Shown: positions 12,210 through 62,895 of the stretch, one piece after another
Layout: each line of letters begins with the position of its first letter
How positions within the stretch are numbered: position 1 is the stretch's first letter
Assembly: GCF_041146345.1 (NCBI RefSeq)
Contig: NW_027191402.1
Location: 744,001-808,000 of the forward strand
Direction of reading: 5' to 3'
From: Neodothiora populina
Taxonomy: Eukaryota
Length of the DNA stretch: 64,000 bases
Position numbers and translations under genes: made by a program
Notes under the pieces: model-generated
The model's input: only the letters and a program-made list of their open reading frames with translations
Databases searched by the model: none
What the model was told of the DNA's origin: nothing

Positions 12210-13978
12210 ATGAGCGCAAAAACGTCGCAGACTGTGCGTCCGTTACTGCGATCCATTCAAAAGACTTTTGCCAGGTCTACAGCAGGAGACGGGTTTGTCT
12301 GCTCGCAATGTCGGTATAGAGGACTCTCTGCTTGGGACAAGCAAGCGTCGAGACAATATGACCATGCACGATTGAGTAACAAGGGCCAATGGACCCGGAG
12401 CTGGTCTTCTTTCGCTGCGAGGCAGTCTCCAAGCGAGAGAGACAAGCCGTCCGATCTCTTTCACATGCCACCGCCAGCAAGTCATGTCGAAGACGTAGGA
12501 CCAGATGATAGCCTTCGCAAGCCTCCTCCATCTAGTCATGCAGAGGCAGATTCTTCAGCCTCGTCCGCTAGAGCTGCTGAGAGTATAGCGATGCCACCGC
12601 CGACGTCAGAACAGAACCAACAGCCAGAGCTACCCTCGGACTCCATTCCAGACATCCCCCCAACCAGGCCGTCTCCCGTCGGGGAGCCTTCGATGAACAA
12701 GCATCCAGAACCAATCGAGTCGCCTCCGGATCCACTGGAGACTCCTGCGTCCCAAGCAGAGCCACGATCGATTCCTAGCGGGGATGCTGGGCATGTATTT
12801 ACGTCATCACCCGCGAAGAACTTGCCATCGGATACCGAGAAGGGCAGATGGCAATTGTCCAAGAACATGCAGGCGTGGATGGATGATTTCCTTGCCAAGG
12901 CTGCCATCTTCAGTCAACAATTGAACACGTACACGGGCACAGACTACTCAGGAATTGTCTCATTGCGACAGGAGATTATTGAGCAAGGTGAGTTTGCCAT
13001 TGGATCGTAGTGAAGCAGTAGACTTTAACATTTCGGACAGAGCGAGACGTCAAGAAACGCCATGCAGCGATTGCAACGGCCAAGGAGGCATACTCACAGG
13101 CGCAAATGGCACAGACTGCCTCTCAGAAAGAAGTGGTCGGTCTTCTCGAACGCAAACACTCTTGGTCCGCTGGTGATCTCGAACGATACATGTCTCTGAT
13201 CCGCTCTGAACACTTGAACGAGCAAGCCGTGCAGCGAGCCAAGGAAGAATTGGCATCGGCTGAGCGAAGCCTCGAGGACGCTCGGAGTACGCTCGAAAGA
13301 AAAGAGAGGAAACAGTATCACGAAGAGCAGATTTGGAGTGACACAATCAGGAGAAACAGCACCTGGGTAACATTTGGGCTGATGGGTTTGAATATCGTCT
13401 TACTGCTGGCCAATTTGGCCATCATCGAACCCTGGAGGAGAAGAAGACTGGTCAAGGAAGTCAGAACTGCCCTGGAAGAGAACTCCATCGCGACGACAGC
13501 ATCAATCACTGCGGCAACCGCTCAAGCTCCTACTGCAAAGCAGATGGTTGAGGAGCAAGTAGAGGAGGTCATGGAGTTTGCGGGTTCCGCGTTGGAGAAG
13601 GTGGAGGAGAGGGTGGAGGACCTGGGGCAGTCTGCGCTAGAGGCTGTGGTGGCAATTGACGATGAAGAAGCTCCCGTCGGCGAGACAACCTTGGCAGCAG
13701 GAGAAGTCCTGCCCGATGAAGCTGTCGAAGTGGTCCCGAGCGACACAGTCGAGTCAGCCATCGAGGAGGTTCCAGAGCCGCCAAAGGCATTCAACCTGCA
13801 GACACTGCAGAAGGACGTGAAGAAAGGATGGGAACAACTGCGGGCTGTTGTACTGGACATGTTTTCTGAGAGAGTTGTCACTCTCAAGAAAGTGGACGTG
13901 ACAACGGTAGCTCTCGAGGGCGCCGCTGCAGGTATCGCAGTTATGGGTTTCTTGGTGTTGATATTCAACCCACGATGA
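12210..13978 (+). CDS. SHE9: Mitochondrial inner-membrane protein She9/Mdm33; exons 12210-12987, 13041-13978
   Basis: LNTYTGTDYSGI, SQKEVVGLLERKHSWS, QYHEEQIWSDTIRRNSTWVTFGLMGLN, EPWRRRRLV motifs; two TM segments. Confidence 0.93.
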
Positions 13979-14862: not shown

Positions 14863-16083
14863 TTTGTTTTGATCTTATGATAGCGACACAAAGATGAAAC
14901 AGGCGTGTTTCTTTGTTCGATAGAGCTTCAGTGTCCCACAATCCATTATCAATGGACCCATCAATGGACCCCAGCCGTTGATCTTGCGATGTTCAGGGTC
15001 CTCGCGGGTCATTTGTGCATGTGAGCCACTCAAGCTCGAGCCAGCAGTTCGTGCATTATTCACTTCCCACAAGGTACAGGACTGTACATCTTGTACTCTG
15101 GAAATACTCTCTAGTAATTACTCCTAACTTCAAGTGTGACAGAGGCACATTCACAGAAATCAAGAATGTAAGGTAGGCTTCGCCTAGACGCAATCTGGAA
15201 TCAGTCGAGATCTGGCAACTAGATATGGCACTAGCAATATGCACATTTCCATCACAACAGGTCCGGCCGGCACTTTGATGGATGGCATGATTTATCACTG
15301 GATAGTGCTTCGCTATCCGCATGAAGAGATCAAAACACAGCGGAAAGAATGCATCCAGCACACGGATCTTCATGCCTCACGTCGTCCCGCAAGCACATGG
15401 TGTCGCCCTGGCTGACTGCGGTCCATCTCTTGACCATGCCCACAGTACGCGGACTGGTGGTTCTGCCACTTTCATCGTCGACGCCATTCAGAGAAGCTCA
15501 GACTTCGTGACTGTATACAGGCCATTGCGGCCGACCCTGTCGCTAATGTGTGAATAGAAGCCTAGAACAGGTACAGTCGATGGGCGGTGTCTCCCGCAGG
15601 CATCGATCTCGTATTGACAGATTAAAGTGCATGAAGCTATGACAACAGTGCTAGCTACACTATGTTCTAAAGCTGCAGGTCTGTTGATTTCCTCGAAGCG
15701 CCATCGAAGCTTTTTCACTTCTTGTCACTGCTGCTTATGGCAAATGCAGATACGCTTTTTACTACCCACGAGCCGTTCCATCATGTCCAGGTGATCCCTG
15801 TGTTTCCACGCTGAGCAGTTGGTAGATCAACGACAAGAACAATTCCATAACTGAGATGGGTTTCGTAATCACATGCGTCCGAGGTCTGTCCGAATATACA
15901 AGCAGGCAGATGTAATCGAGGTAAACTCTAAACTCGGACTAAACTCCTGTAATTATGACGCCTGCCATGTCCCAGACAATACGAGATCGGACCCTGGCCA
16001 GACGAAGTTGAGGCTCACGAGCACACACACGGTGACAGCATGTACAACGATGGTGCACAGCAGGACTTTGTGGCCTGATGCAC

Positions 16084-16231
16084 GTGGGGAAAGGAGAGAA
16101 TTGATCTTGCATAAGGTATGTCTTTGGTGCAGAGCAAAGAAGTTTGGGGTATCTCCATATGGATCTCGGCCTGCCCGTGTGGAGGATAAGCGTCACCCCG
16201 CCGTTGATTTCACGGACCCACGGGGCTCCGC
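16084..16231. promoter_or_regulatory. Cluster of four CreA/Cre1 consensus sites (SYGGRG) upstream of xlnR
   Basis: GTGGGG 16084, GTGGAG 16179, CCCCGC 16196, CTCCGC 16226; CreA repression of xlnR is established in Aspergillus. Confidence 0.5.
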
Positions 16232-16425
16232 GCACCCGCACATCTGGCCAGCCTGCACGGAAAGTCTCACTTCCTTTGCCATGTTTGCATTCATCTGAGT
16301 GGTCTTCGGTCTTGATTATACGAGCACTTGGCCCATCTCACATGGGCGTCCTTGAAAAGTGTATGCTGGTCCATGAGTGAGACTGTCATCACGCATGAGG
16401 TTTGCGCCGACTTGGACCACCGACC

Positions 16426-19400
16426 ATGCTGTCTTCAGGCCATCAATATCAATCCCGATCTAGCCAGTCTGGCGATAGAAGAAACATGATGACACAACTC
16501 GATAACATGGATCCGTCACAGCGACAGTTGACAGGCTTGGACGCCCTCGCCCAGGGATCCCACTATGCGCTTCAACAACTGCATGACGCTGCAGTTTTCA
16601 AGTCTGGTCTAGAGAATACACGCGATAGAGAGTCGCGCAGCGTTGAAGACGACGGCAACAACGCCGACAAGACAGAGGATGGAAGCGCAAAGACCAAAGA
16701 AAAATCAGACAGTTCTCTTGTGCGGCGAAGGATCAGTCGAGCCTGTGATCAATGCAACCAGCTGAGAACCAAATGTGATGGTAAAAACCCTTGCGCTCAT
16801 TGCGTTGGTGAGTCTGGGTGTTTTTCGCAGTCCGCGGCACGTCATAATTGCTGATAGTAAGCAGAATTTGGGCTTGCTTGCGAATACAACAGAGAGAAGA
16901 AGAAGCGTGGCAAAGCATCGCGTCGCGAACTTGAGAGGCAAAAGCAAACGTCGTCTTCCGCAGACCAAGGCAGACAAGAGAGTCCACCTTCAGTCACCGA
17001 GCGCGGCACAGGCAGTGTCGATGCACGCGATACAGCAGGCACAAGCAAACCGGCGCTGAAGAGGCAAAAGCATAGCCACTACCGCGACGCTAATACACTG
17101 CACGACCGCTCACAGGATACCGTAGGCCAAGAGATGGTGAACAGCAGCGGGACTCGCTTACCTCCAATCTCGCGTGCTGCTCCGTTAATGAACCAGCACA
17201 CGAGAGATGCTTTCACAAGGGACGGCTACCCTACTACGCAGATGGCCCTTGCCAGTCAAACCGGCGTCAACATGCTTCCCAATCCCCGTCTACCGCTGAA
17301 CGGCTTGCACGACCGCAGTGGGTCCATAGGCGCAGCTGAATATGGAGGTTCTATCGACGACTACCACCGACAGACGATGAACCAGAACGGGCATGCTCTT
17401 CTTCATGGAGGACTGCATCCTGCCATAGGTACACCTACTGGCGTCATGCATTACGGAGATTCGCCGTACAACTCTGGTCACAGTCCCCACAGCCAAAATG
17501 GCCTCGGCGCTTTCAGACTGGGTGAATCTCCCGTGTCAGGTGGACAAAATCACAATTTCTTTGGCGCTTCTCCAAACGCTGGCTCTCCTGCCTGGATACA
17601 ATTGCCCTCTCCGTCGGCCGCGTTGTATACTAGCATCAACACACAGGCACCGAGTCAGCATCTCAGATACCCGGTTTTGAAGCCCATATTGCCTAGGATA
17701 TCTGCAATTATTCCTCCAAGTCTTGCCTGTGATCTGCTCGAGCTTTATTTTGCAAGTTCGTACAGTTCTTTTGTACAGCCCGAATCGCCTTACGTTCTAG
17801 GATTCCTTTTCAGGAAGCGGTCTTTTATGCGACAGTATAGTCCGCGACACTGCAGCCCTGCCTTGTTGGCAAGCATGCTCTGGGTGGCAGCCCAGACGAG
17901 TGAATCGTCTTTTCTTACATCTCCACCATCAGCACGGGGCAGGATTTGTCAGCAATTGTTAGAGCTGACTATAAGTCTCCTGAGACCGCTTATCCACACC
18001 CCAGCCGAGGGCGTATCTTCACAGAGCATGAATCCTGTCATCAACGGTGTAGCTTTAGGTGGATTCGGCGTTGCTTTGCAAACTGCCAGGCACGACAACG
18101 AAAGCGGCACCATGGGTGCGACTGGCGCGCTCGACGATGTGGCCACTTATGTTAATCTGGCCACTGTTGTTTCTGCGAGTGAATACAAAGGAGCGAGTCT
18201 GCGATGGTGGAATGCTGCTTGGTCCCTGGCTAGAGAATTGAAGCTGGGCAGAGAGTTGCCCCCCAACCCTGAAACGCCCTTGCACGCCGACGAAGGCACA
18301 AACGAGGACGGCTCTGCAGCGGTTGACATCAGCATGCATGCGCAACAGCGACGTGTGAGCCCGCCAGGAACCGTTTCTGAAGAAGAAAGAGAAGAACGTC
18401 GTAGAATATGGTGGCTGCTTTATATTGTTGATCGACACTTAGCGCTGTGCTACAACCGTCCGCTCTTCCTTCTCGATGCCGAATGCGAAGGTCTGCTGCA
18501 ACCCGAGGATGACTCGGCCTTCCAGGCAGGCGAGTATTATCCGCTTGATAAACGACAAGAAAACTTCTTCCGGCAGAGAGGGCCTGGTTTCGAGTGTGTA
18601 GGCCATGGTATCTTTGGCTACTTTCTACCACTCATGACCATCCTTGGCGAGATTGTTGATCTGAATCATGCGCGCAATCATCCACGTTTTGGAGTGCGTC
18701 TTCGAAGCGGGTCCGATCTCGATGATATGCAGCATGAAATCAGCCTTCAATTGGACGCTTATGAACGAAGCTTGGAGGTGTTCAGAGCACGACATGCCCC
18801 CGGAGAGAAGCCGAACGGTAATCCAGACGACAAAGCAAGTCCTGCGTCGAGCACGAGTAACAATCGAATGACGGAACCGGTGCTTCTCACCAAGATACTG
18901 GTTGCTTATGGCACACATCTCCTGCACACTCTGCATATCTTGTTGAACGGCAAATGGGACCCTATCAACATGATTGATGATAACGACCTGTGGATCTCGT
19001 CGCAGTCCTTCATTTCTGCGACCGCTCATGCTGTGTCTGCCGCCGAAGCGATCAGTGGAATACTCGACTATGACCCAGATCTCAGCTTCATGCCTTTCTT
19101 TTTTGGTATATACTTGCTCCAGGGCAGTTTCTTACTTCTCTTGATTGCAGACAAACTGCAGGGTGAAGCCAGCCCATCTGTGATTAGAGCATGTGAGGCG
19201 ATTGTGAGAGCGCACGAGGTTTGCGTTGTGACGTTGAATACTGAGTATCAGGTATTGTTTCCTGCCTCCTCTTGTTTTACCCTCTGAGAGATCGTACTGA
19301 TATGTTTCGACAGCGTAACTTCCGCAAGGTCATGCGATCCGCACTGCAACAAGTCCGAGGTCGAACGATTGAGGACCCTGTCGAACAGCAGCAACGAAGA

Positions 19401-26861: not shown

Positions 26862-27263
26862 TTAACTCCACGTACTATTGTATGATATGACCTGCTCCTC
26901 CTGATATCTCTTCAATCCATCCCAATCTACGCAAGAATGTACTACACCCCAACTCAACCCATCTTTCCAGTACTCCTCCGGACTCCCAGGAGGTGAATCG
27001 CTCTCGAACACCATATAGTCTCCGCAGGTAATACTCAGCCGAAGATACTCGAAGCAGTGTTCCAGATGCGTAATCCAATCCGCATCAATCGGATTACTAG
27101 ACAACTGATCTACAGAATCAGCCTCGTATACAAGCTTGTTGTACCGCGTCCTTATCATGTCAACGCAATGCAAACACTGGCTGGGGCGTTGAACATGAAT
27201 GCATAGATTTCGAAAGGTTGAGGCTTTTTCAGATTGAGCAAGAAGCAAAGTATAATATGACAT
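26862..27263 (-). pseudogene. UstYa/DUF3328 oxidase homolog, apparently internally deleted (no TM, first HxxHC incomplete)
   Basis: SQCLHCVDMIR and HLEHCFEYLRLSITCGD...WGVVHSCVDWD are DUF3328 motifs; only about 133 aa; TATATAA at 27295-27301 precedes ATG 27263. Confidence 0.7.
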
Positions 27264-27378
27264 GGCAGAAAGATGTTTAGTCTCAATAGATGCCTTATAT
27301 ACAGTATCAGAGTATCGGGAACTGTAGTTCAACTAAAGCTGTATTCATGTACTAGACATGGCATCGAGTGACGATAAT

Positions 27379-28014
27379 CTAAGTAGATTTGAAACCATAC
27401 ACAGCCAAGTCATCTGCCATTCCAGGAAGAGTCCAAACTGCTCCCTGAACCCCACCAAAAACATGCAATGGCATAACTCCTCTGTATTCAAAACCAAGGC
27501 TTCGAAAAACTCCTTCAGATGCCTTATTCTGAGGATCGAAGAGGCCCAGCACAGCGTCAACTCCAAGTGTATCTTTAGCGTACCCTAGCAGCCCATGGAC
27601 AGCTTCCTTTGCATACCCTTTTCGCATCTCTTCTGGCAAGATAGCGAACCCAAGATCCGGTACAGTGTATGAGTTTGCGCCTTCGCCGCGCATCAAGGAT
27701 ACTGTGCCAATGGGCTTACAATGTGCAAGTATACCATTGTCTCGATCAACCGCCCCTTCTAGTATCTGTTCGGGTTTCAGACTGACTAGATACGTCCCAT
27801 ATCCATTGCGAGCATGCTCGGCTCGAAAACGGCCTTCAAGCTGTCCTCGAGCCTTTTCCACGGTAGTAATTGAGGTGGGCTTGCCGCCGATAGAGCCAAT
27901 GAATTCGGGTGTGTTGTAGAGCTTGATCAGGAAATTGCAATGAATCTCATTACTAGGTCGCAGGTAGGATAGATACATTCGAGGTGTCTCAATTGAGAAA
28001 TGTGGATCGGTCAT
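27379..28014 (-). CDS. GNAT acetyltransferase (RimJ/RimL, Acetyltransf_3-like), intronless
   Basis: IETPRMYL start, PDLGFAILPEEMRKGYAKEA acetyl-CoA motif A, NKASEGVFRSLGF motif B. Confidence 0.9.
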   Translation of the reverse strand: MTDPHFSIETPRMYLSYLRPSNEIHCNFLIKLYNTPEFIGSIGGKPTSITTVEKARGQLEGRFRAEHARNGYGTYLVSLKPEQILEGAVDRDNGILAHCKPIGTVSLMRGEGANSYTVPDLGFAILPEEMRKGYAKEAVHGLLGYAKDTLGVDAVLGLFDPQNKASEGVFRSLGFEYRGVMPLHVFGGVQGAVWTLPGMADDLAVYGFKST

Positions 28015-28842
28015 CTTTTTGTGTCATAGACGAGAAATTGGAAATGTAGATGTTATGACTTGAGGATAGGGAAGTGACTGGCATGGTCAATGAGCAGGGA
28101 GCATCCGAAATTTATCGTAGTCTGTAGTTCGATTAGAAATGACAATGTCTCTTATCTCGCATTGAAGCTATGCCATTTCTCTGAGGGGACAAAATGCATT
28201 TGACACGTTTCGTGCACTAGATATGGAACAGACAGAATGGCTACACACCTAGTATGTCACCGATGATACTGTAGTGTCTCCTAGAGTCAATCAGGACCCT
28301 GAGAGAAGTCTCGCTTAACATAGTGCTCAGATCCTACTGTATGTTGTTATTTTAGCGGGATCTGCACGGCCAAGACCTTCCATATGAGGCTAGTAAACAA
28401 GGCCCACACCGAGCATTGTATAAGATAAGTACTGTATCATAGACATGACCGCCTCAGGACAAGTGCATACGGCACATCTACCCTGATTTGACACAGGATT
28501 CAGCAGCAAAAGTCCTGATTGGTACCCGAGTCGCGAACGTGTTTGTCGCACAATGTTGCCACATGATTCAGGAGGCGCACGCTTGTCGCTAAAGAAAGGG
28601 CAGTCGTTCAGACTACATCACTTGTATACAAGATGCAGAAAAGGGCAGAATATCGGACTCATCAGCCACCTTGGGGATTTTGCAGACATGAGAAAAAGGG
28701 CAGAAAGATGCAGCTGAGAGATCAGAAGTGGCAAGTAACAGTGCCCTTTTTGCCCATGACTGCTTGTATTAAATGCTTTGGGTTTCAGTGCTGGAGTGAG
28801 GTTTTCGATTCCGTGTATATGCTTCCATCATAATCTATCGTC

Positions 28843-50706: not shown

Positions 50707-53021
50707 GCCGGCTGACCCTTTAACTATACCTGCCAACAGACAGATAAATCGAGGAGTTTGGGCGTGGAATTGTTTCGGTCGCAAGATCTAGATTTTGGCT
50801 CAAGCTCCCGAATGAAGGGGAGAGAGATTCGAAGAAAGATGCATGAGGAGTACGAGAAGCCACCCGATAAACATACCTTTTTCTTACCACCAACCACTAC
50901 TCTTGTACATGTACTTGCAGCTGCCGTTTTCTATTAGCACGAATGTACAAAAGCGTTCACAAATCACCTATATTCCACACTTTTTGCTGTACATTTCTGC
51001 TGCTGTCACATTGGCGGATGTGACTTGTTGATACTTTAGGATCAAACAGCATTCGATGCGCGTTGGCAGGCAGCTGCCTTAACCGGATACCGATGCCAGA
51101 GACTCCATGCGACAGCTGTGCGCGTCAAGGCTCCGGCTGGCAACATCTCGAAAAGAATGGCAAGCACTGAAGCCAGGCGCTGTCACGACACTATAACGAA
51201 GATGCCTCGCCTCTGTCCGACAGCCCAACAACCCAACATGCGGAATTAGAGTCTAGATTTTATGGTCTTGATCACCAAGATGTCTCCTTTGGCGAAACCG
51301 CGACAGGCGGCCTGATGCAAGTGAAAAGTACGGGAGAAGCCCTCGCACGAGGGAGCCACGTGAGAATGGAAGCTACGTTGACGCCTTATGTTTCAGGGCG
51401 ACACTCGTGCTGCGCCGCAGCTCAGTGCATCCCGACACATAACAGATGATATATAGTCTTAGCGAAACGGTAGTAAGTACACCCTTGGACGTGTGGATGT
51501 ATGCTTTTGTGTCGGTGCTGGTGGTTAGTCTTGGTAGACCTTATCGCTTCTCGAGCCAAGCCGAGCTCACCGCGACCCGTCGCTACGACCATGCCATATT
51601 ATTTTCTCGGTCCTCCTGAGCTTGGCCGCGGCTGAAACACTGGTCACCTAGCGTGTTGTGCTGGTGATGCAGTGCCTACCTGAGCAATGCAGAGATGGGA
51701 GAAAGGTGCTAGAGATATTGGTAGGCCTGATACTATACTATTGATGAGGTTCTCCTGCACACAACGCAATAAGGCAGCTCCATTAGAGGCATATTGCGCC
51801 ATTGTGTCAAATGCGTGCGACTGGTGGGTGGGCAAACAAGACATCCATAGTTTCTCAAAGCGCTTGCACGATATCTGAAGCAAAAGAACTTGGTCTTGGT
51901 CATTGATCATCATAAGCGAGACTCACTCTGGATGCACCGCTGTTCCCGGACAGATGGAGCAAGCGGTGAATTGGCCATCTTGACATTCAGCACTGACAGG
52001 ATCATCATTAAGCTCCATCCATTTCCCGATGATCCTCGATACATTGTTCCGGCACCGCATGCAACCCTATACCATTGTTCCAATCGAACACTCCCTCCAA
52101 ACTAGACGGCGCGATTGTGTAAGCGTAATATCTACGATAGGTTGACAGGTCAAACGATCAACACTCGTGCCGTGCCGCATTCCTGCAAGACAGCAAAGGC
52201 CCTGCGTCTGGAAGATCACATGCGAAGGGGATAAAAGTCATCTATATTGCTTCTCCAATATGTTTCTTTGCTTGACCAACAGCCCCCTCACACACACGAG
52301 AACCTTACTGTACCAAGGCGAGCCACGGTGTATCATCGCCGCGAAGAGCCCATTAAACGAAACAGCCGGGAGGGGAACCAAGCCACCAAGCCTCGCTCCC
52401 GCTTTCGCAAGACGTGGAGAGCTGACTGCGGTGCGCTCTCTGTGCTGCCACGAAACCTCCTTCCCGCATTACCCAGACGCTGTTTCATGGTGCTCGAAAC
52501 GACAATCCACTCTGGCTGTCAACAAGGATCGTCAAACTCACCCATGACGGGCCCTGACTAGGAATATAGAAGTCTCTGAGGTCGAGATGCAGGTCCCGGA
52601 TCTTCCATCAATCAGTGCACGCACCCCCCTCCCTTGTCCCTTTTGCGCTGGCGCCATTGCTCTTGACAGATGGTCCCGCTCTCGCTCGAGGCATCACAAG
52701 GTGTATTTTCGTAGGTAACTTGGCAGATCTCGCTCTACAATATCACGAATCGTGTTGTCTCGTGGGGAGGGGAAACGCGGCGTTCGTAGTGTGCGGAAGG
52801 GGGTGATTGATGTGTTTGAAGTAAACATGTTTTTCCTTTCATCTGCTCTCGCTTGCGAGTGATGCCATGAGAGGGTAGTGATGAATAGCATATATAAAGT
52901 GGTAGGTATCGAAGTGTTGGATATTCGAATCACTCAGTAATACAGCCTCGACTTTCTTTTTACCTATATCTTCTTATTTCAGTTCTCGTTAACTCTTTGA
53001 AAGAGCATACATTCCATCACG

Positions 53022-54042
53022 ATGATTTCTATCTCTTCTATTGCTTCGCTGGGTCTGCTGCTTCTGCGAAGCGCTGATGCAGCTACACTATATTTGGCCG
53101 GTGATTCGACCATGGCAGCAGGGGGTGGTGGTAGTGGCACACAAGGTAAACACATTCCGTTTCACATGTCAAGTCACTCTATACTTTTACCTTGTCCTCA
53201 AACACAAGGTCTATCATAGACGAAGAGTGTAAAGAAGTACATGTGGTAGTAACAACAACGCTCACTCACACAATCGAAACACAGGCTGGGGCGAATACCT
53301 CCACTACTCCCTCTCTATCCCAGTCGTGAACGACGCCAAAGCAGGCCGTTCAGCCCGCAGTTACACCGCAGAAGGCCGCTTCGATACCATCACCGAGGCG
53401 GTCAAGTCCGGCGACTATGTTCTCATTGAGTTTGGACACAACGATGGTGTCAGCAACCCCGACAACGGAAGGAGTGACTGCCCAGGAAGCGGCAACGAGG
53501 TCTGCACAAAAGTATACAAGTAAGTAAACACCCTTTCGTCTATCACTTTCCTGTCTGCCATACAACAGGTCTTCAAGCCACAAGTCAACACAACTCTGGA
53601 AGAAAGAAGATACTAATATCCCACCCCCTCTCACAGCGGCGTGACCGAAACCGTCTACACCTTCCCCAAATACCTCGAATGGGCAGCCGCGAACCTGACC
53701 GCCAAAGGCGCGCACGTGATAATATCCTCTCAAACCCCCAACAACCCCGACGAAACGGGCGTGTTCGTAGACTCGATACCGCGCTTCGTCGGCCTTGCCA
53801 AAACCGCCGCCACCGCCGCCAAAGTCGACTATGTAGATCACAACGCTTACACTTTCGCCGCGTACAAGACCAAGAGCGTCTCTACGGTCAACAGTTATTT
53901 CCCCAATGATCATACGCATACTGCGCCGGTTGCTGCGGCATTGGTTGCGCAGACCTTCGTTAGGGGACTGGTTTGTGGTAACAGTGGGCTCAAGAGCTAC
54001 GTTAAGAATGCTACTAGCTCTATTGAGGGTTCGTGCTTGTAA
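53022..54042 (+). CDS. Secreted rhamnogalacturonan acetylesterase (CE12, SGNH); exons 53022-53145, 53285-53519, 53637-54042
   Basis: Signal peptide; [44 protein letters not shown] at 52891. Confidence 0.95.
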
Positions 54043-54223
54043 ACGTGAGAAAGCCGTAGCGACGGCGCTTTGCAGCAGTAGCAGAGGAGAAAAGAATCTT
54101 GTGCGTCCAGACACAGTGATTAGTGGTTTATCATGAGTGTAGATAGTTTTTACGTCTGGCACGTTTTTCTTAATTGACACTCATCTACTCTTCAGTCATC
54201 ATTTCGTCTTTCCAGTGCTCTGT

Positions 54224-55665
54224 CTATAGCTTCGAGCGAGGACTCTCCTGCAGTGCCGAAACCGCCTGTTGCCCACCCACTTCTCCAGAGCACAGCGCGC
54301 CCTCCATATACCCTTTCCACTCGCTGGCGAACTCAGTCCCCACAAAGTGAAGATTGCCCACGGGCTGCCTATACGCAGCATCCTTGGACAGCATACCCTT
54401 GTCGCCGAGAATCGGACAGACCGCGCCCTTGCTGAATTCCTCGTTGATCCACTCCTGCTCGAAGATCTCAATCGGCTTGTACACGGCATCGTGCTCGCCG
54501 TACATGGTCGCGATCTGAGCCAGGACCTGCGCGCGTCGTTCGTGCTGTGGCAGCTTGCTCCATGTGCGGCCTGGCTCGCCGTTCACGAAGCATGTCAGGG
54601 AGAACTGCTTGTTGGCTGCCACGCTCGTGTCTCGGGCTACTGCGACGGGGCCCTCGAACGCGAGTGTCAGGCCGCTGTAGCCGGCTTCTAACCACCAGGG
54701 CTCGTCGTAGCATAATATCACTTTCGTGTATGTTCCCAGGAAGGTGCTTGATGTTACTAGGTCTTTTGCAGCTGGTAGGGGTGGCGAGAAATTTACGTCT
54801 TTGTATAGTGGAGTTGGCAGAGATATGATGACTTTCTTGGCCTTGAATGCTTCGCCGGTTGTGGAAGTCACGACGACGTGGGCTTTCTTGTCGTCTATTG
54901 CCACCACGGGCGTGGAAAGACGCACACTGTTCTTTGGTAAACGGACTGCGATGCCTTTCGCGACAGACTGCGAACCTGTCTTGAAGCGAAGGTACTGGCC
55001 ACCGTGTTTGCTGTCCGATCGCATCTGCATTAGACCACCACCTCGGCGAGCATAATCGATAAAGAAGCCCGCTGTGCACTCTGTGTGTTCACATCCGATC
55101 ATTACGCGGGTCCAGAGGTTGACCATCTTCTGGGTCTTCTCGCAGCCTTTGTGCTTGGTCACGTACTCGGCGAGCGTCATGCTGTCCTCCTCGGCTAGAT
55201 TATATGTCTTCATAGATGCATCATGGATCATGTCGCGGATGCGCTCTAGATCTGCTACTTCTTCTGCTGAGAACTTTGCGTGTGCGTCAGAGCCTGATCA
55301 CATTGAAATGTTTCTGTCTTCAAGATAGAAACACGGAACCAACTTACATTTGGACTCTTGCCAAAAGGAAAAATATGCGTTTCGCCACCTTCCTCGAGCA
55401 TCACACACTTTCCCTCGACGCTCTGGGTGACCATCTCCAATCCGAATTGCTGAGCATACGCCCACATTCGTCTCTGGTTCGTATCATTGATCCAAGCGGC
55501 GCCGAACTCGACACTTCCACGACCAGAAGCGAGAGGAACACTCCAAGTCTTGCCGCCTACACGATCACGGGCTTCGACGACAAGCACTGATTTGCCGGCT
55601 TGATGAGCAGTGGTGGCAGCTTGTAGACCACTGAGGCCGGCACCGACAACAAGGATGTCGTACAT
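54224..55665 (-). CDS. Flavin-dependent amine oxidase (MAO/putrescine-oxidase family) with PTS1; exons 55665-55348, 55273-54224
   Basis: VVGAGLSGL, EARDRVGGKT, FGAAWIN, LHFVGTE..WKGYMEGA; C-terminal SKL. Confidence 0.95.
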
Positions 55666-56993
55666 TTCCTCGGATATGAGAGCTGATTATGGGAATCGAC
55701 GTGACAAGACAACACAAACCTACGACAATCAAGAGGACGGTAAGGTAATGGATACGTCTACAGGACGCTGCAATCAGGTATTACTCCTTATATAGACTCT
55801 AATTTTCCACCGCGAGAACGGGACGGCCGCATCTCCCTGTCTACAGACTACCGACGAACATCTCTAACAATACCAAGAGAGTACAGGGTTATCGTACTCG
55901 GTCAACTGTTGTGGGACCTTGGAAGGCCGGAATAGAGTCAACTTGCCTATCGAGATATCCTATTGCACAACACCGCCTATCTGGGGTTGGGTGCCTTTAA
56001 CAGATTGCAACCAATTTGGCAAGTGACCCCCGACGCCAAGGTTACGTGGCACAACACCATAGCGTAAGACTCCGTACTGTTAAGGTAACGGCATTCACAG
56101 CTGTACTGCTTCGGTAATGGCCTTATACTTCCGAGGTGTCTGCTCTTAGATTGAATCGTTCGTCATACGAACATGTAAGCATTGCTTGTATATAGTGTAT
56201 AAGCTGCTTTGTCTGTCTCACTCTACGAATGACCGATCATTGTAGCACACATTAGTAAATATAGATTGTGAACAGTATGCATGAATGTTGCTTGACTCTG
56301 ACTATATGGTTCTTAATAACTTATCTTCCTCAATCCAGAGTCGCACGAGATAATGAGTAAAGCAGCGTCTGGAACTGGCACGAGACGACGTCCATGATGA
56401 TACTCGCAGCATGAAAGCTCAATCCAACACGCCCTATTCAACAGCAGCATGACGGATAGCTGACACATGAAAGCCATTCTACATTGTGATATTTGCTCAT
56501 CAAGCTCTTCCTCTGCACCGGAATCACATTACCCGAGTAAGAGTGCGTCACATTGTACATATAATCTGTTCCCATCCACAACATACCTTAAGGTATGTTT
56601 GTAGACACAACCCCGCATCAGCATCTCGGTGTAGACCTACCATACTAAAAACGGATTGGGGTAGCGAATTTGGCTTCTACCCTTATCCAGCCCCTTATCT
56701 ACAGCCACCCTCGCTCTTGCTCCGCAGGACATCGAGTGTGCAGTATGACTCGAAGGGGAAGCCGAAGATGGGGGAGGCTGCGGAGTCGTGATAGACATGC
56801 TTACCATTTATGTGGTGGCACTATCGGCTCTTCTTGCTCGGATAGATAGAAACTACCGTCAGCATCATACATAAGAGCAGCATCTCATCCACCACTTGTC
56901 ATCTTTCAAGACCACAGCATTGCCTTTTTGTTTCTATCGTAGACAAGTTCTCCCAATAAAAAGCTCATCATATAACACCTATACCAAGCAAAC

Positions 56994-58058
56994 ATGCCAG
57001 GAACCGTCCCATCCCTAAAGAGAATCCATGTCTCCGAGACGGAGAACATCATCAACTGCATCAAAGAAAATGGCTGTTTGATCATCAAGAACTTCACAAC
57101 CCCCGAGGTCGTCGACCAGATCAACGCCGAGACTCGACCATATCTAGACAAAGACAAGCCATGGAAAGGCGACCTCTTCCCACCCGAGACTCGACGCTGC
57201 CCACGCCTTGTAGCTCGCAGTAAGGCATTCCGTGAAAACTTGCTCGTTGCCCCTATTGTCTCTGCTCTCACTGCCGAGTTTGTCGATAAGACGACAAGCA
57301 ACTTCTACGGCGAGACGCAGCATACATACACCAGCAAGGCCATCATGAGCATCAGCACGACCATGGAAATCGGCCCCGGAGGCAAAGCCCAGCGACTGCA
57401 TCGTGACGACAAGAACTATCACGTGGACCACAAGGATCAGACGCAGACTGGGTATCAGAAGCATTCGGACGTGGAGCTGTCGTTTCTGATTCCGGGGATT
57501 GACACGACTATCGAGAACGGGGCAACGCAGGTAAGAATTTTGTGCTTCTCAAAGGTTTTTGTACAGTAATGAGATGAGATGAGATGCTGATGGCTAGCAG
57601 GTAATCCCTGGCTCGCACCTCTGGGACAACAACCGCGTCCCATTGTTCGAGGAAGTAGACTACGCCGTCATGAACAAAGGCGACGCCTACGTGATGCTGG
57701 GATCCACCTACCACGCGGGCGGAGCGAACCAAACCACCGACACCAAGAGACCTATGCACGGCATGTTTTTCTGCCGGGGTTACATGCGATCGGAGGTCAG
57801 TAGTTTCCCGCATTCCTCAAGCAACGTTTTGCAAACTGACAAACGATGCAGGAGAATCAATATCTTATCCACTCCCCGGAGGAAGTCATGTCCTGGTCTC
57901 CTGAGGCACAGAGAATCATGGGCTACACTGTGTCGGCGCCTAATATTGGCTTTGTCGATTTTATCGACCCCGGAAAGTACTTGTCTGGAGACTATGACCC
58001 TGATAACCTTCATGACTTTGATCCGTCGCAGGAGGTCAAGCCTTGGAATGTCAAGTAG
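56994..58058 (+). CDS. PhyH-family Fe(II)/2-oxoglutarate dioxygenase; exons 56994-57530, 57601-57795, 57852-58058
   Basis: IGPGGKAQRLHRDD (HxD), ENGATQVIPGSHLW, YHAGGAN (distal His), R...CRGYMRSEENQ. Confidence 0.94.
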
Positions 58059-58505
58059 ATCGAGGTGCAATTATTCACGCAGATATCTAGAATGATTAAT
58101 GAATACGCATATATATCATATAAGAAACTTTCCCGAAGTGCGCAATGTAATATTGTGTTGGGCTTGTAATCTATCAACGATGTCTGGATCTTGTGTGCTC
58201 AGAGCGGAGTCTGGGAACGCTCTCTTGAGGCCAGTGTGTATGGCGAGGAACAGCAATTGCAACCCTTCACTACTGCTATGTGTCTCCGCCACGCTCCGCC
58301 AGAGAACCCTCTAAGATCAGTATGCTACATGATCAATATCAGAGCTGCGAGAAGTGAAAAACATGCAAGTCAAAAGCGCTGAAAGTGTGCTGAATCGAGG
58401 CTGCATGATATCGTAAGCTTTTCATTTGCGTCGATTCTCTATTCTACTATCTTCATCTCGGCCACCCGCTGTCGTGACAAGCAGGTGGCATCATGCCGCA
58501 GAACA

Positions 58506-59637
58506 TTACTTGGCTACGAAGGACTCCTTGGGAGGTATCTTGACCACTCCGTTGATCTCCTTTGTTCGCCACTGAATAGCCTTCAGCAAGTGGTAGAGCA
58601 CTGTCAGAGTAGGCATGGGTACTCCGAGAGCCGTACCAGCTCGCAGAGGCTCGCCCAGAATGTTCTCGTATTCCGTGTAGTTTCCCTGTGGGTTGTGTCA
58701 GTGATCGAACTTAATCAAGCGACGATTTGTCGATTATACCTTTCTGACATCCCCCAGCATGCTCGGTGGCAAGTACATGGTGACGGGATCAAGATTGATC
58801 ATGAAATCACACACATCAGCAGGCAACTCGACGCCGTTAGCTTTCGCCGCGGCTCTGATCTCCTCCATGGCGGGTCTGACAAGACTGTCGACAAGGTCAT
58901 CTGCTAGACGAAGTCGTCCAGTATCAAGACCCGTGAGGGCACAGATCGAGTTCAGGCAGGCGTTATATATCAGCTTTCGCCATCTAGTGAACGGGACATC
59001 ATCCGTGAATTCGCAAGAGCACTTGCCGGATGCAGAGTACAGCTTGACGTATTCTTTAGCGGCGGCTTCTTCCTTCGCTGGGTCTAGTCGAGGGTTATGG
59101 AATGGGCCGATGAAGCTACGATCGTTGTCATCGTGCTCGATGACACCATGTTGAACTTCGTGAGAGCCGATCAGACTGACTCCGGACAGGACAATGTTGT
59201 CTGGGAAAGCTTTGAACATTGGTAGCTCGATATTGAAACCATTCTGGACCAGGACAATCACGGTATGACCTGGGACCACAGCAGGAGCGATGAGCTCGGC
59301 CAAGGTAGGAGGACAGTCTGGGACGTTCTTTGTCGTGCACACAATGTAGTCAAATTTCTCCTCTGAGGTAAGAGGAATGGATTTGAGAACTGACGAGCAC
59401 TATTAGATTCGATGGTCACGAGAGATTTTGGGAAAGGCTACCTTTGCTAGGGCGCCATCCGCTGACTGTGCCATGATCACAAGACTTGATATCGAAACCC
59501 TTGTTGATCACGGTGTTATAGTTGGACCGCAACACAGCAGTCACTGATGTAAGTCCACCGGCCTCTAGATTTAGAGCTGTGATGGTGCCAACTCCACCGC
59601 CTCCAAAAAGGAGGACTTTGGCTTTTGAGGATGCCAT
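58506..59637 (-). CDS. Ketopantoate reductase (ApbA/PanE)-like oxidoreductase, 3 exons
   Basis: LLFGGGGVG, LRSNY, CTTK, LVQNGFNIE, RWRKLIYNACLN, PSMLGD, EYENILGEP motifs. Confidence 0.92.
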
Positions 59638-60044
59638 TAAAGCCTCACACTGTAGTAGATGGATAAAGAGCCAAGGATGTTTCAATCAAGTCGAATGTTC
59701 TTGTCTCTATTACTATGGACTACTTGATATATCTATGGAAGTCATATTGGAAGACTTGCGCAACGTATCAACTGACTACGGGCCGAGTGGTGTGTTGGAT
59801 GGAGGCTGATAGTCCGACGTCGCTTGCCTGATCTAGAGGTCGTCCGTGCAGCTCGGCTACCATCGGCTATCAGAGGACCCTTGGCCGGGCTCTGTCTCGA
59901 AGCGGTTGTTCTCCAAATGGAAGGCCAACCCCGACGTGAGGACTATCCCACCATGCTCGTCCAAAGCTATTATCATTCTACCGATATCCTGATGATTTCG
60001 GCTTTCGGTCATGAAGTTTATGTCTGCTTTCATATCAGCAGACG

Positions 60045-62206
60045 ATGATGGGTCGGTCTGCCGCTGCCTGCTCGACATGTCGAACGAGGAAGGTCAAGTG
60101 TGACCGCAGGGAGCCCAAATGCTCACCTTGTGAGAGGTTGAAGTTGCAATGCGGGAGCAACAAAGTCGCCCCAAGGCTGTCTTGGATGGAAGCCAAGGAT
60201 GTAGATGATGAACAATGTAATAATGAACACGAAGTCAGTGCACGACGGAAAGCTCTGTTTTCTGGTCAGTCTATATCAGCTCATACCTAGGTGAAACGAG
60301 ACTCGACTGACCTCATCAAGTCGCCGAACGTGAAGCAGAATGCAAAGTGCTGCTTGGACAGGTCAATGGTCAGAAAGTCGAGACCTTATTGCAAGACCTC
60401 GAATCATTCACAGGACCACATGAAGATGTCCATAACACTACTCTTAGCAGTGGTCCCTTCAGCGTATTCACAACGAGTGTATCAGCAAGCTCCATAGAAA
60501 GTCATAATGAAATTCCAAGCGATCAAGAAGACCAGCCGATCAGTAACACCATCGAAGACGACATCGACGAAGTGATCAGGCAATCACACTGGGACGAAGT
60601 GATTGATGTAGCCCCGAATCGCCATGTCGTTGACCTGGACTTCTTCGACACAAGGTCGCGGACACCGGTGTTCAATGATTCGTTTGACACTTTGTTTGAG
60701 TTTCCCGCGTCCTTGAGCATTGAAGAAGACATACAAGATGTCGATCTTTACAAGGACTTGCTGAACAGCTCGCCGACCGAATACCTGCAACGGACGCCTT
60801 CACCGCGAGAGTTGGCTATGCCTCTGGAGATTGCAGGTGATTTTGGCGACCTCGCTCCTCTGATCACCAATACTCTGCTCGTTCATTACAAGGAAGCGAT
60901 GTTGCAATGCTTTGTCCCGCTCAAGCAGGAGAAATCACCATGGAGTATTGTGCATCTACCTTGCGCCATGTCTGCGTACGGCGAAATGGCCCTTCTAGGC
61001 GACACCAATAACGCGAAAGCTGCTTTGTTCTTCGCAATCTGTGCCATGAGCGCGTTGAATCTTGAGCAGATACAAAGACAAGAAACAGGAACGACGTCGC
61101 AGTGGCAGACTGCAGGCGAACGATACCGAAGCAAAGCCAAGTCTCGGCTCCAAGCAAGCCTTCGTGAGCAGGGCGGCAGCGTCAAGAAAGCCAAATACAA
61201 AGAAGTGCTGATGGCCTTGTTGAGCATGGTCACGATATGCGTCGTCTCTGGACAAATGGAAGACACGAAAAGTTTCCTCCTCGACGCCGAGCGATTCATC
61301 TATCTCCACGGACTCTCGAAGCGGCGCAAATCGAAAAAGGTCCTCATGCTCCACGCCATATTCTTGTATCTACGAGTCGTGCAAGAAAGCACATGCATCA
61401 GTGATGCAGCCTTGCAAGCATCACTACCCAATGCGACCTACCACGAACTCAGCGCCGACGGCTCATTCTCCTGCCGCTACCCATCACTATGGACGGACAG
61501 ACTCAAACTAAGTCTGAGCCTAGACACGGACAACCTCGAAATGCAACTAATGTCGTATCCCTCGGACGCAGCCGAGCCGACCATCTTCGAGCACGTCTAC
61601 GGCATCCCAGAGTATCTATTCAGATACATATCGCACGCGACCTACCTAGCCAACGAACTCGAGCGACACCACAGCAAAGTAGCGAACCACCGTCTCGACG
61701 CCTCGATCAAAGCTCTCGAGAGCCGAATCTGCAGCTACCAAAACCCGTACAAAGCCATGGCGGTCATCGGACCCCGTCGCTCGCCCGACGAGTTCGAGTC
61801 CCGCTGCTCGCTCTACTACGACTTCATAGAAGCCATCCACTCGGCGCTGATGATATACTATTACCGGCGCGTGCGAGACGTCAACTCGCTCGTCTTGCAG
61901 CACTACGTCAAGAAAACCATCCATCACCTGCTTGTGCACGAACGCAAGAAAATAGAGCAAAACGACGCGTCGGCGAATTTCTGCTGGCCGGGCTTTGTTG
62001 CCGCGTGTGAAGCCTTGGATGCCAAGGATCGAGAGACGGTATCGAAATGGCTTGAGAGGTCGTATACCAAGAGTGGACTGGGCTCGTTCAATACTGCCAG
62101 GGACGTCGCGGAGAAAGTCTGGGCTGCGCGAGGAAGGTCTGGCAATGCGGATATGTCGTGGCACGATGTTCTCGCGAGGGGAAAGACGGCGTTGATTCTG
62201 AGTTGA
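60045..62206 (+). CDS. Zn2Cys6 transcription factor with Fungal_trans_2-type domain (Arg81/ArcA-like); exons 60045-60264, 60321-62206
   Basis: ACSTCRTRKVKCDRREPKCSPCERLKLQC; KAKYKEVLMALLSM, ALMIYYYRRV, WPGFVAACEA. Confidence 0.92.
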
Positions 62207-62345
62207 AGCTGAGCAGCACTCCTGCGCGAATCTTGCAATTGTCGTCCCCGTGACCATTTTGTAACAGAACAGAACATGGCTTCTGAAGGTTCACAGCGAT
62301 ACTCACAGTAGCACCCAGTAAATATGTTGTCTGTATCTTAATCAA

Positions 62346-62372
62346 TTTTTTTTTTTTTTTTTTTTAAAAAAA
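62346..62372. repeat. Poly(T) run of about 20 followed by A7 between convergent genes
   Basis: Direct reading of the homopolymer. Confidence 0.8.
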
Positions 62373-62895
62373 CGTCGGTACCTTTGCAGAAAAGCGCAGA
62401 GGCAAGGAAAATGGGAAAGAAAAAGGTCAACTCCCTCAGTTTTAGAGTTTTCGATTTTCGATTTCTATTTTTCTTTGGTAATCTTTCTTCGCAAGCTCTC
62501 TCAATAGAGAGACAAAACGCGGGTACAAATGCGTGATCGATGAACACATGGTTTCTCGACTCTCGTCTTGCTTTGCTTTTCTGCTTGAAGCCGAGCTTTC
62601 CATGGCAACGGTGAAGAAAGCAGACACAGGGAGAAGAAGGACAAAAAGAAAATCAATACACGTCCATCTTGCGGCTCATTTCGGGTCTGCCGGAGCTATA
62701 GTCTCTGGGGACGGTCCTCTCGAAACCCCTGACCCTACTCGTAGCGCCGCCGCCTTTCTTCATGGCCGCGAAGCAATTCATACAAGGTCTCAAGAGCAAC
62801 AGTGAGGCGAGCAGGAGAAAACAAGCTACCAGAACAACGAACAAAGCAATGCCCACAGTGGGCCAAAAGGACGATCCACGGTGACTACCGGAGAG

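Follow-up and report, generated by a model that had tools for sequence, protein, structure and literature searches.

A recurrent grouping of amine oxidase, PhyH-type dioxygenase, PanE-like reductase, and Zn2Cys6 regulator genes in filamentous ascomycetes: a candidate unit for amine catabolism

The 64,000-nucleotide stretch of Neodothiora populina DNA analysed here (the window) contains, at positions 54224–62206, four intact genes arranged as two divergent pairs: an amine oxidase gene (minus strand) and a PhyH-type dioxygenase gene (plus strand), followed by a PanE-like reductase gene (minus strand) and a Zn2Cys6 transcription factor gene (plus strand; Table 1). A Pfam profile search places all four families at these coordinates, and gene models built by hand are identical, at every residue, to deposited proteins P0001 (455 aa), P0121 (312 aa), P0241 (341 aa), and P0518 (700 aa), the N. 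populina counterparts being AAFC00_001872–1875. On the left flank, an open reading frame (ORF; 53617–54042) matches rhamnogalacturonan acetylesterase 1deo (5e-41), confirming its CE12 label; on the right flank, a match to Glyco_transf_15 (7e-104, Pfam) confirms the KTR mannosyltransferase label. The 68 ORFs of at least 110 aa upstream of position 54200 (54 kb) gave no Pfam match to a PKS, NRPS, or terpene synthase domain, and no backbone synthase of the PKS, NRPS, terpene synthase, or DMAT synthase type was detected among the 98 window ORFs scanned (these 68 and 30 others), in a scan that reaches position 64000, 1.8 kb past the transcription factor gene and not past the KTR gene. The original prediction, made from the sequence, of four consecutive genes in two divergent pairs, lying between a CE12 gene and KTR1 and lacking a PKS, NRPS, or terpene synthase, thus agrees with the matches within the window. 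The cluster in the window contains no transporter gene.

Table 1. Coordinates of the genes, exons, and divergent spacers of the four-gene cluster (exon coordinates include the stop codon).
Feature	Positions	Strand	Length	Details
MAO-like FAD amine oxidase, AAFC00_001872	54224..55665	-	455 aa	Pfam Amino_oxidase and NAD_binding_8; 100% identity to P0001
Oxidase exons	55665-55348, 55273-54224	-		74-nt intron 55347-55274, GTAAGT...AAAG
Oxidase/PhyH divergent spacer	55666..56993	.	1,328 bp	Presumed bidirectional promoter
PhyH-type Fe(II)/2-oxoglutarate dioxygenase, AAFC00_001873	56994..58058	+	312 aa	Pfam PhyH; 100% identity to P0121
PhyH exons	56994-57530, 57601-57795, 57852-58058	+		
PanE/ApbA-family (ketopantoate-reductase-like) NAD(P)H reductase, AAFC00_001874	58506..59637	-	341 aa	Pfam; 100% identity to P0241
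Reductase exons	59637-59442, 59389-58740, 58685-58506	-		
Reductase/transcription factor divergent spacer	59638..60047	.	410 bp	Presumed bidirectional promoter
Zn2Cys6 factor with Fungal_trans_2, AAFC00_001875	60048..62206	+	700 aa (isoform)	Pfam; P0518 and P0368 are the deposited isoforms
Transcription factor exons	60048-60264, 60321-62206	+		

The two exons of the oxidase match the Pfam Amino_oxidase profile (1.6e-36 and 1.3e-17), covering profile positions 1–86 and 110–435 of 443, and the protein also matches NAD_binding_8 (5.4e-14) and carries a GxGxxG FAD-binding Rossmann motif at its N-terminus (residues 6–13, VVGAGLSG). Over its full length, the oxidase matches solved structures of MAO-B (1.1e-56), MAO-A (~1e-51), cyclohexylamine oxidase (3e-47), and putrescine oxidase (6e-40), with which it has in common the FAD fold of PF01593 and the equivalents of Lys296 and Tyr435. 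Specifically, alignment to MAO-B, using MAO-B residue numbers (Lys296, Cys397, Tyr398, and Tyr435), shows that the Lys296 and Tyr435 equivalents are kept, the Tyr motif being present in all 104 full-length homologues, while the Cys397–Tyr398 pair is replaced by Ala-Val in the window oxidase and by AL (81), AP (12), or AV (11) across the family (n = 104). In this alignment the oxidase lacks the Cys of covalent, 8-alpha-S-cysteinyl FAD attachment, and the two-tyrosine aromatic cage is only half present.

The oxidase differs from MAO A/B in having a PTS1 in place of the C-terminal membrane anchor. No outer-membrane anchor is present, with the protein ending at residue 455 and the MAO-B alignment stopping at 459–460 of 520, and its last three residues are SKL. 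C-terminal [SA][KR]L occurs in 47 of the 104 full-length homologues, P[KR]L in 8, ANL in 20, and ASL in 7, and the oxidases of metagenome contigs L004 and L002 end in AKL; PTS1-like endings are absent from PhyH and reductase homologues. The SKL end and the PTS1-type ends in the family predict a peroxisomal oxidase, as had originally been proposed. An Fms1-type polyamine oxidase identity was considered and is not supported: exon 2 matches MAO-B at 4e-43 but maize polyamine oxidase at only 4.5e-6, and the 36 PDB matches to the oxidase (E up to 1e-5) include no chain of Fms1, an enzyme with solved structures.

The dioxygenase matches PhyH (PF05721) in two exon pieces (2.3e-8 and 5.8e-7; 35 and 30.4 bits versus a cut-off of 22), and the residues of its HxD...H motif, H136, D138, and H217, which we take from the family motif to be the iron triad, are invariant in 14 of 14 homologues. 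Structure prediction (pLDDT 77.3, pTM 0.82) gives a modelled double-stranded beta-helix fold like that of solved members, with Foldseek matching the model to AsqJ (E 1.5e-18, TM 0.69–0.74) and, at a TM of ~0.7, to AsqJ, 8zyb, PrhA, and FtmOx1. At the sequence level, the protein matches SwnH1 (2.5e-16) and is 24–32% identical to AsqJ, PrhA, and FtmOx1. SwnH1, DhiD/8zyb, AsqJ, PrhA, AusE, AndA, FtmOx1, and EasH belong to the same Pfam family and have the same fold; however, the clusters of these tailoring dioxygenases also hold a PKS, NRPS, or terpene cyclase, whereas the window PhyH is accompanied by none of these. The nearest solved relatives are all secondary-metabolite tailoring enzymes, which would suit a biosynthetic role too. 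The subfamily is 55–66% conserved across classes, with a single lower row (Zalerion, 49%). In the Atlas it falls into an automatic cluster of 448 members, most of them from Ascomycota.

The reductase contains ApbA (7e-13) and ApbA_C (1e-14) domains, matches the bacterial ketopantoate reductase (KPR) 3i83 over its full length (2.7e-33), and has the lysine motif W-x-K...N, which 53 of 54 full-length homologues share. It passes the subfamily model TIGR00745 (150.3 bits versus a cut-off of 141.35); among the 15 matched families, no equivalog KPR model was passed (best, NF004887, 149.5 bits versus 360), and because those models are built on prokaryotes, this weakens, without excluding, assignment as a ketopantoate reductase. 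The likeness to PanE/ApbA enzymes such as yeast Pan5 accordingly comprises both domains, the lysine motif, and the TIGR00745 score, and no equivalog match. The original prediction had raised a link to pantothenate by analogy with Fms1 and Pan5; we do not retain it, the oxidase being MAO-like, not polyamine-oxidase-like, and the reductase passing the subfamily model only. The fungal ketoisovalerate reductase KivR of enniatin and beauvericin producers presumably belongs to the same family. Aplosporella has two reductase paralogues among those listed, and the copy linked to the transcription factor is the less similar one.

The regulator contains Zn_clus (9.3e-10) and Fungal_trans_2 (PF11951, 1e-60) domains, and its CX2CX6CX6CX2CX6C six-cysteine motif is readable in P0518. 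Among 16 homologues looked up, the closest (46%, 40%, and 34%) are factors with no assigned name that adjoin cluster genes, and those with the automatic name ARG81 (P0431, P0441, and P0452) are 27–28% identical (27–29% for homologues so named overall); the proposed Arg81/ArcA-type label is supported only at the level of the PF11951 domain. No shared motif or conserved CGG-type site was established in the promoter spacers of the cluster; TCGGCT occurs three times in the 410-bp reductase/transcription factor spacer versus a window-wide frequency of 0.59 per kb, a weak, post hoc observation.

A new observation is that the four-family grouping recurs across fungal lineages. All six pairwise links among the families reappear elsewhere, with order and orientation changed, in Saccharata, Xylona, Onygenales, Claussenomyces, Zalerion, Ilyonectria, Aspergillus egyptiacus, and four independent metagenome contigs; in these seven named lineages beyond that of the window, and on the four contigs, at least two of the four families lie within four genes, and co-localisation spans at least five classes of Pezizomycotina. 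Adjacency in the named genomes was taken from consecutive accessions or locus tags and matching contig sizes, not from DNA. In particular, Saccharata proteae has PhyH, reductase, and oxidase with consecutive accessions (KAF2087296, -97, and -98); Xylona heveae has reductase (KZF20048), oxidase (KZF20049), and transcription factor (KZF20051); and Emmonsiellopsis PD_5 has oxidase (FQN50_006595) and PhyH (FQN50_006599), a pattern repeated in two further Onygenales. Reductase and PhyH are linked in Claussenomyces (M1818_003375 and M1818_003376) and in Zalerion (PhyH KAJ2903514, reductase KAJ2903517), and reductase and transcription factor are linked in A. egyptiacus (KAI9373281 and KAI9373283) and, with consecutive accessions, in three Ilyonectria genomes. 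The metagenome contigs carry transcription factor, PhyH, and oxidase (L002); PhyH and transcription factor (L003); oxidase divergent from PhyH (L004, equal to L005); and transcription factor divergent from PhyH (L007). Oxidase and PhyH also occur together on four Logan contigs (10111, 34065, 5345, and 7830 bp), paired by equal size. On L003, a haem-dependent N-demethylase-like gene lies divergent from PhyH, at the place that the oxidase has in the window, and this pair is flanked by three amino-acid-type transporter genes; these neighbours indicate an amine or amino-acid-like substrate.

In a 45-row PhyH tree, linked copies occur in every major clade, and neither of the flanking genes, CE12 or KTR, accompanies the four families. 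The best homologues of oxidase and PhyH are unlinked, i.e. far apart or on different contigs, in Aspergillus brasiliensis, A. nanangensis, A. crustosus, A. varians, A. undulatus, A. venezuelensis, and A. unguis, and in Neonectria punicea, N. magnoliae, N. ditissima, Dactylonectria macrodidyma, and Rhizodiscina lignyota; the best Xylona PhyH lies ~217 accessions from the Xylona cluster. On synteny, which the original prediction had named as a check, all six pair links recur across lineages, and in many Aspergillus and Nectriaceae genomes the best homologues lie apart. Because same-family partners recur together in other lineages, the grouping exceeds chance.

The recurrent co-localisation strongly supports the original proposal that the four genes form one functional, probably undescribed amine pathway, and we regard a functional link among the four genes as highly probable. 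Judged from sequence comparison, the cluster is likely a metabolic unit of four genes, conserved and inherited together among filamentous ascomycetes. Literature searches yielded no description of this four-family combination, in agreement with the earlier view that it is not a recognised characterised cluster. Our preferred reading, for which we claim moderate confidence as a whole, is a regulator-controlled unit for amine catabolism or detoxification that leads from amine to alcohol. In the presence of a particular amine, the Zn2Cys6 factor would turn on the three enzyme genes through both divergent promoters. The PhyH-type Fe/2OG dioxygenase, in the cytosol, would hydroxylate or otherwise oxidise the compound, and the peroxisomal MAO-like flavoenzyme would oxidise the C–N bond to an imine, whose hydrolysis would give a carbonyl, with ammonia (or a smaller amine) and H2O2 set free; either of these two steps could come first. 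Using NAD(P)H, the PanE-like reductase would then turn the carbonyl, be it a 2-oxo acid, ketone, or aldehyde, into a hydroxyl. Overall, the amine would yield usable nitrogen and a hydroxylated alcohol or hydroxy acid. Such a net reaction, deamination and carbonyl reduction, suggests catabolism or detoxification of an environmental amine, not synthesis of a scaffold. PanE-family enzymes classically act on 2-oxo acids, whereas MAO-type oxidases usually yield aldehydes or ketones, a point against this reading, in which the hand-over from oxidase to reductase is putative.

The proposed chemistry has parallels in known systems. In kanamycin biosynthesis in bacteria, the PhyH-family dioxygenase KanJ removes an amine by oxidation and leaves a ketone, which the NADPH reductase KanK converts to an alcohol; the logic of this pair, which has neither flavin oxidase nor regulator, resembles that of the window cluster by chemistry alone. 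AnFAO (UniProt A2R252) is a fungal FAD-dependent MAO-type enzyme that converts a primary amine on a secondary carbon through an imine to a ketone (PMC9415688); it thus gives a fungal precedent for the MAO-type amine-to-ketone step, and its product is of a type that a keto-reductase could take over, a likeness of chemistry. The catabolic nicotinate (hxn) cluster of A. nidulans is like the window cluster in serving nitrogen-compound use in a eukaryote, in having its own regulator, and in pairing a flavin oxidoreductase with a dioxygenase that uses 2-oxoglutarate (PMC5746545). However, the regulator HxnR is a C2H2 factor, versus Zn2Cys6 in the window, HxnY is PF14226/PF03171, not PhyH, HxnT is Oxidored_FMN, and a molybdenum hydroxylase and two MFS transporters are also present (PMC5746545); none of the four families is common to both clusters at the Pfam level.

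Chance adjacency of four unrelated genes, already disfavoured, is very improbable: although the genes lie amid housekeeping genes with no backbone synthase, and many Aspergillus and Nectriaceae genomes have their best homologues in separate places, all six pair links recur in other classes and on metagenome contigs with order and orientation changed, and the CE12 and KTR neighbours are not carried along. A division into two separate modules, oxidase with PhyH and transcription factor with reductase, belonging to different pathways and merely neighbours in this genome, would account for the oxidase–PhyH pair occurring alone in L004/L005, the four Logan contigs, and Onygenales, and for the transcription factor–reductase pair occurring alone in three Ilyonectria genomes and A. 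egyptiacus. Links across the modules are, however, about equally common, including consecutive PhyH, reductase, and oxidase in Saccharata, reductase, oxidase, and, one gene on, transcription factor in Xylona, reductase–PhyH in Claussenomyces, PhyH and reductase in Zalerion, and transcription factor–PhyH in L002, L003, and L007, and we consider such a division quite unlikely.

A backbone-free biosynthetic mini-cluster is also unlikely. Here a primary metabolite, e.g. a branched-chain or other amino acid, would become a small hydroxylated hydroxy acid or alcohol, which could be pantoate-like and serve as metabolite, signal, or vitamin-like precursor. The biosynthetic relatives of the dioxygenase, the ketopantoate-reductase subfamily score, and a patchy distribution like that of many secondary-metabolite clusters are consistent with such a role; hydroxylation and deamination of an amino acid would give a gamma-hydroxylated 2-oxo acid, a PanE-type substrate; and PhyH homologues carry an automatic name from yeast YJR154W, and the duplicate of that gene, BIO1, acts in biotin synthesis, a lead only. 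Arguing for catabolism instead, the oxidase is MAO-like, neither L-amino-acid-oxidase-like nor Fms1-like, both the PTS1 of an oxidase that produces H2O2 and the amino-acid permease genes of L003 are typical of catabolism, the reductase passes no equivalog-level KPR model, and identity of the enzymes between classes is 50–70%, a high value for secondary metabolism. Within this range of products, we hold as improbable a widespread, undescribed pathway of filamentous ascomycetes, likewise backbone-free, in which an amino compound would undergo gamma- or beta-hydroxylation by PhyH, peroxisomal oxidative deamination, and PanE-type keto-reduction to give a diol or a hydroxylated 2-hydroxy acid, pantoate-like or a signal. 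If true, it would provide a second, regulator-controlled route to pantoate-like blocks or a new signalling metabolite, beyond nitrogen scavenging.

Stop-to-stop open reading frames (ORFs) and Pfam scans bear out the four genes originally predicted at 54224-62206, with intron-exon models made by eye using canonical GT...AG introns of 52-74 nt. Each product is identical to a deposited Neodothiora populina protein, and mapping these proteins to the window recovers every exon, indicating that the four genes are consecutive and intact. The predicted lack of a backbone synthase likewise holds within the window, where none of 98 scanned ORFs has a domain of a PKS, NRPS, or terpene synthase, and the sequence ends 1.8 kb past the Zn2Cys6 transcription factor (TF) gene.

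Genes of the window cluster and arrangement of the same families in metagenome loci
Feature	Location or arrangement	Strand	Basis
Flavin amine oxidase	within 54224-62206	-	Pfam; AAFC00_001872, 100% identity
PhyH dioxygenase	within 54224-62206	+	Pfam; AAFC00_001873, 100% identity
PanE/ApbA reductase	within 54224-62206	-	Pfam; AAFC00_001874, 100% identity
Zn2Cys6 factor with Fungal_trans_2 domain	within 54224-62206	+	Pfam; AAFC00_001875, 100% identity
Locus L002	TF, PhyH, and oxidase in a 3.1-kb stretch		tblastn
Locus L003	PhyH then TF, TF 32% identical over 650 aa		tblastn
Locus L004/L005	oxidase and PhyH divergent, same as window		tblastn
Locus L007	TF and PhyH divergent		tblastn

The cluster is real and conserved, and its togetherness across at least five classes of Pezizomycotina marks it as functional. 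Linkage was read from locus tags, consecutive GenBank accessions, and homologues on contigs equal in bp, with the DNA itself used only for metagenome loci. On this basis, the synteny expected of a co-regulated unit is found in part: each of the six possible pairings of the four families is linked again in other named genomes or in metagenome contigs, with order and orientation altered, but best homologues are unlinked in many genomes. In particular, consecutive accessions link PhyH KAF2087296, reductase -97, and oxidase -98 in Saccharata proteae, and TF and reductase in Ilyonectria destructans, I. robusta, and Ilyonectria sp.; accession numbers also place reductase KZF20048, oxidase KZF20049, and TF KZF20051 together in Xylona heveae, PhyH KAJ2903514 near reductase KAJ2903517 in Zalerion maritima, and reductase KAI9373281 near TF KAI9373283 in Aspergillus egyptiacus. 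Locus tags link oxidase FQN50_006595 and PhyH _006599 in Emmonsiellopsis PD_5, with an oxidase-PhyH spacing of 3 in two further Onygenales, and reductase M1818_003375 and PhyH _003376 in Claussenomyces. Four Logan contigs, 10111, 34065, 5345, and 7830 bp in length, have both an oxidase match (73-81% identical) and a PhyH match (75-79% identical), and in Penicillium brevicompactum, P. hispanicum, and Aplosporella linkage is known only as a shared contig. The Xylona TF is 46% identical to the window TF, ranking fourth among the 150 representatives listed and being the closest named match outside N. populina. The one gene between the Xylona oxidase and TF, KZF20050, is a candidate for a divergent PhyH or for an additional member of the pathway.

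A metagenome scan with the PhyH alignment yielded 24 loci, in which partners were sought by tblastn. PhyH is at least 50% identical in eight of them (L001-L008), L004 and L005 being equal in sequence. Partners were found in the loci listed in the table; L006 (4 kb) has none by tblastn, and L001 and L008 are too short to judge. In L003, a haem-dependent oxidative N-demethylase-like gene (4101-4658, minus strand; PF11927, 1.4e-53) is divergent from PhyH and occupies the position of the window oxidase, and the PhyH-TF pair is flanked by two AA_permease genes and one Aa_trans gene (892-2304, 11309-13720, 14883-16557).

Unlinked best homologues, defined as lying on different contigs or far distant, are called tentatively, since contigs matched by bp can mix assemblies: oxidase and PhyH lie apart in A. 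brasiliensis, A. nanangensis, A. crustosus, A. varians, A. undulatus, A. venezuelensis, and A. unguis; oxidase and reductase in A. heterothallicus, A. pseudonomiae, A. egyptiacus, Neonectria punicea, Dactylonectria macrodidyma, and Rhizodiscina lignyota; PhyH and reductase in N. magnoliae; and TF and reductase in N. ditissima. Moreover, the best Xylona PhyH is ~217 accessions from the Xylona cluster, and 14 tags separate the oxidase and reductase of Helicocarpus. Sixteen TFs were checked of the 150 representatives listed; besides the window's own, four directly adjoin, or share a contig with, a member of a cluster family; for three, the partner that could be checked is not linked; and eight are without partner information. 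In a quick IQ-TREE PhyH tree of 45 rows (36 hand-chosen named homologues of the 120 listed, plus 9 metagenome rows), linked copies occur in every major clade. Specifically, N. populina and Saccharata are near the base, L003 groups with Zalerion and L002 with L007, L004 sits beside Cadophora sp. M221 among Leotiomycetes, and Emmonsiellopsis falls within a Eurotiomycete clade that also contains unlinked Aspergillus copies. The topology fits an old linkage with repeated loss or reshuffling.

Alignments spanning the whole oxidase were obtained with human MAO-B (1.1e-56), MAO-A, cyclohexylamine oxidase, and putrescine oxidase; exon 2 alone matches MAO-N at only ~6e-7 and maize polyamine oxidase at 4.5e-6. 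The equivalents of MAO-B Lys296 and Tyr435 are retained. The position of MAO-B Cys397-Tyr398 is Ala-Val in the oxidase, and AL, AP, or AV in all 104 full-length homologues among the matches listed, implying that FAD is not bound covalently via that cysteine and that the substrate cage is unlike that of MAO A/B. The protein ends in SKL, and among its 104 full-length homologues (of 120 listed) the C-terminus is [SA][KR]L in 47, P[KR]L in 8, ANL in 20, and ASL in 7, endings from which predicted peroxisomal targeting can be read for the oxidase family. No such ending is present in the PhyH and reductase homologues.

PhyH residues H136, D138, and H217 are invariant in 14/14 homologues, and the AlphaFold model of the protein has a pLDDT of 77 and a pTM of 0.82. 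Its automatic Atlas cluster carries generic names only; an Aspergillus awamori homologue with 65% identity (database protein P0150) bears an automatic name that refers to yeast YJR154W. Yeast BIO1, which serves biotin synthesis and is PhyH-like and oxygen-dependent, is said to stem from a YJR154W duplication (PMC7187267, PMC7267198). The reductase has both PanE domains, and its lysine motif is present in 53/54 homologues; it narrowly passes the TIGR00745 subfamily cut-off (150.3 vs 141.35 bits) and passes no equivalog model.

All six cysteines are present in the TF, as is a full PF11951 domain. The factor is annotated as two isoforms, of which the 654-aa P0368 begins at Met47 of the 700-aa isoform (exon 1, 60048-60264) and thus lacks the whole Zn2Cys6 DNA-binding cluster; the shorter isoform may reflect genuine alternative transcription or be an artefact of the annotation. 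Spacers of 1,328 bp and 410 bp separate the divergent oxidase and PhyH genes and the divergent reductase and TF genes, respectively. Among CGG/CCG pairs with 0-14 spacing, no site is common to eight regions of the window, L002, L003, L004, and L007 (six promoter spacers and two further stretches between genes), and the two window promoters have two 9-mers and no 10-mers in common. Counted on either strand, the hexamer TCGGCT appears at three places in the 410-bp spacer (59853, 59863, 59998) and at two in the 235 bp before the PhyH start (56760, 56824), compared with 0.59 per kb window-wide; these counts are post hoc, and TCGGCT, a possible half-site for the resident factor, was kept out of the evidence. 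One sequencing run, probably DNA, gives six contigs of 180-294 nt, without joints, on 54000-62400 and carries no information about expression or splicing.

At the level of sequence, then, the enzymes appear competent, a resident factor is present, and co-localisation is conserved. In the proposed pathway, the TF would induce the unit; PhyH would hydroxylate or oxidise an amine; the oxidase would convert the C-N bond, inside the peroxisome, to an imine that hydrolyses to a carbonyl, with release of ammonia and H2O2; and the reductase would take the carbonyl to an alcohol or hydroxy acid. KanJ/KanK follow a similar amine-to-alcohol logic. A fungal precedent is AnFAO, a MAO-type enzyme described as taking an amine to a ketone (PMC9415688).

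We favour a catabolic or detoxifying role, because the family C-termini point to a peroxisomal oxidase and because L003 carries an N-demethylase-like gene and amino-acid-type transporter genes by PhyH. A biosynthetic unit, including one that makes a pantoate-like product, would accord with the PanE-like reductase and with the nearest solved relatives of PhyH, which are fungal tailoring dioxygenases (24-32% identity); we consider it unlikely. The pantothenate reading of the original prediction, modelled on yeast Fms1 and Pan5, is not retained as the main explanation: the oxidase is MAO-like, and the reductase is without an equivalog match.

The closest known kind is the fungal catabolic cluster that carries a regulator of its own, the hxn nicotinate cluster being one example; the hxn cluster has none of the four Pfam families. 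No description of the four-family combination was found in the literature, of which subscription-only papers or closed supplements could contain one, and as far as the literature searched shows, the combination is, as predicted, not a characterised cluster. Small clusters without a scaffold synthase are numerous in fungal genomes and are skipped by standard genome-mining tools. The chemical logic of the present one is clear (hydroxylation, deamination, reduction), and the cluster includes a predicted peroxisomal step and its own regulator. Identifying its substrate, for which plant amines, alkaloids, and sphingoid-type toxins are candidates, would extend fungal nitrogen or xenobiotic metabolism by one pathway, and would also give function to a large, well-conserved PhyH subfamily (the 448-member Atlas cluster) and to the MAO-like oxidase family predicted to be peroxisomal. 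AnFAO, the known fungal MAO-type enzyme, is under development for mycotoxin detoxification.

The cluster is flanked on the left by a rhamnogalacturonan acetylesterase gene (CE12; 1deo, 5e-41) and on the right by a Glyco_transf_15 (KTR) mannosyltransferase gene, both rejected as members since neither has a tblastn match in any of the 24 metagenome loci. The 54 kb upstream are mostly housekeeping, encoding among others Nipped-B, aldehyde dehydrogenase, HEAT-repeat, and TFIIS-type proteins and a Rieske protein. As a candidate amine N-demethylase, the Rieske gene (49.6-50.7 kb) was rejected, its UCR_TM and Rieske domains identifying a mitochondrial complex III subunit; the ~2 kb between it and the CE12 gene (50800-53000) contain no ORF with a Pfam match. 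Among the housekeeping genes, a UstYa-like ORF (PF11807, 1.2e-14) adjoins a GNAT acetyltransferase ORF (PF13302, 1.5e-16) at 26865-28023 on the minus strand; UstYa proteins are otherwise familiar from ribosomal-peptide mycotoxin clusters. Distant from the cluster, on the plus strand, are another Zn2Cys6 factor, which belongs to the Fungal_trans (PF04082) type, at 16399-19284 and a GATA factor at 4897-6183.
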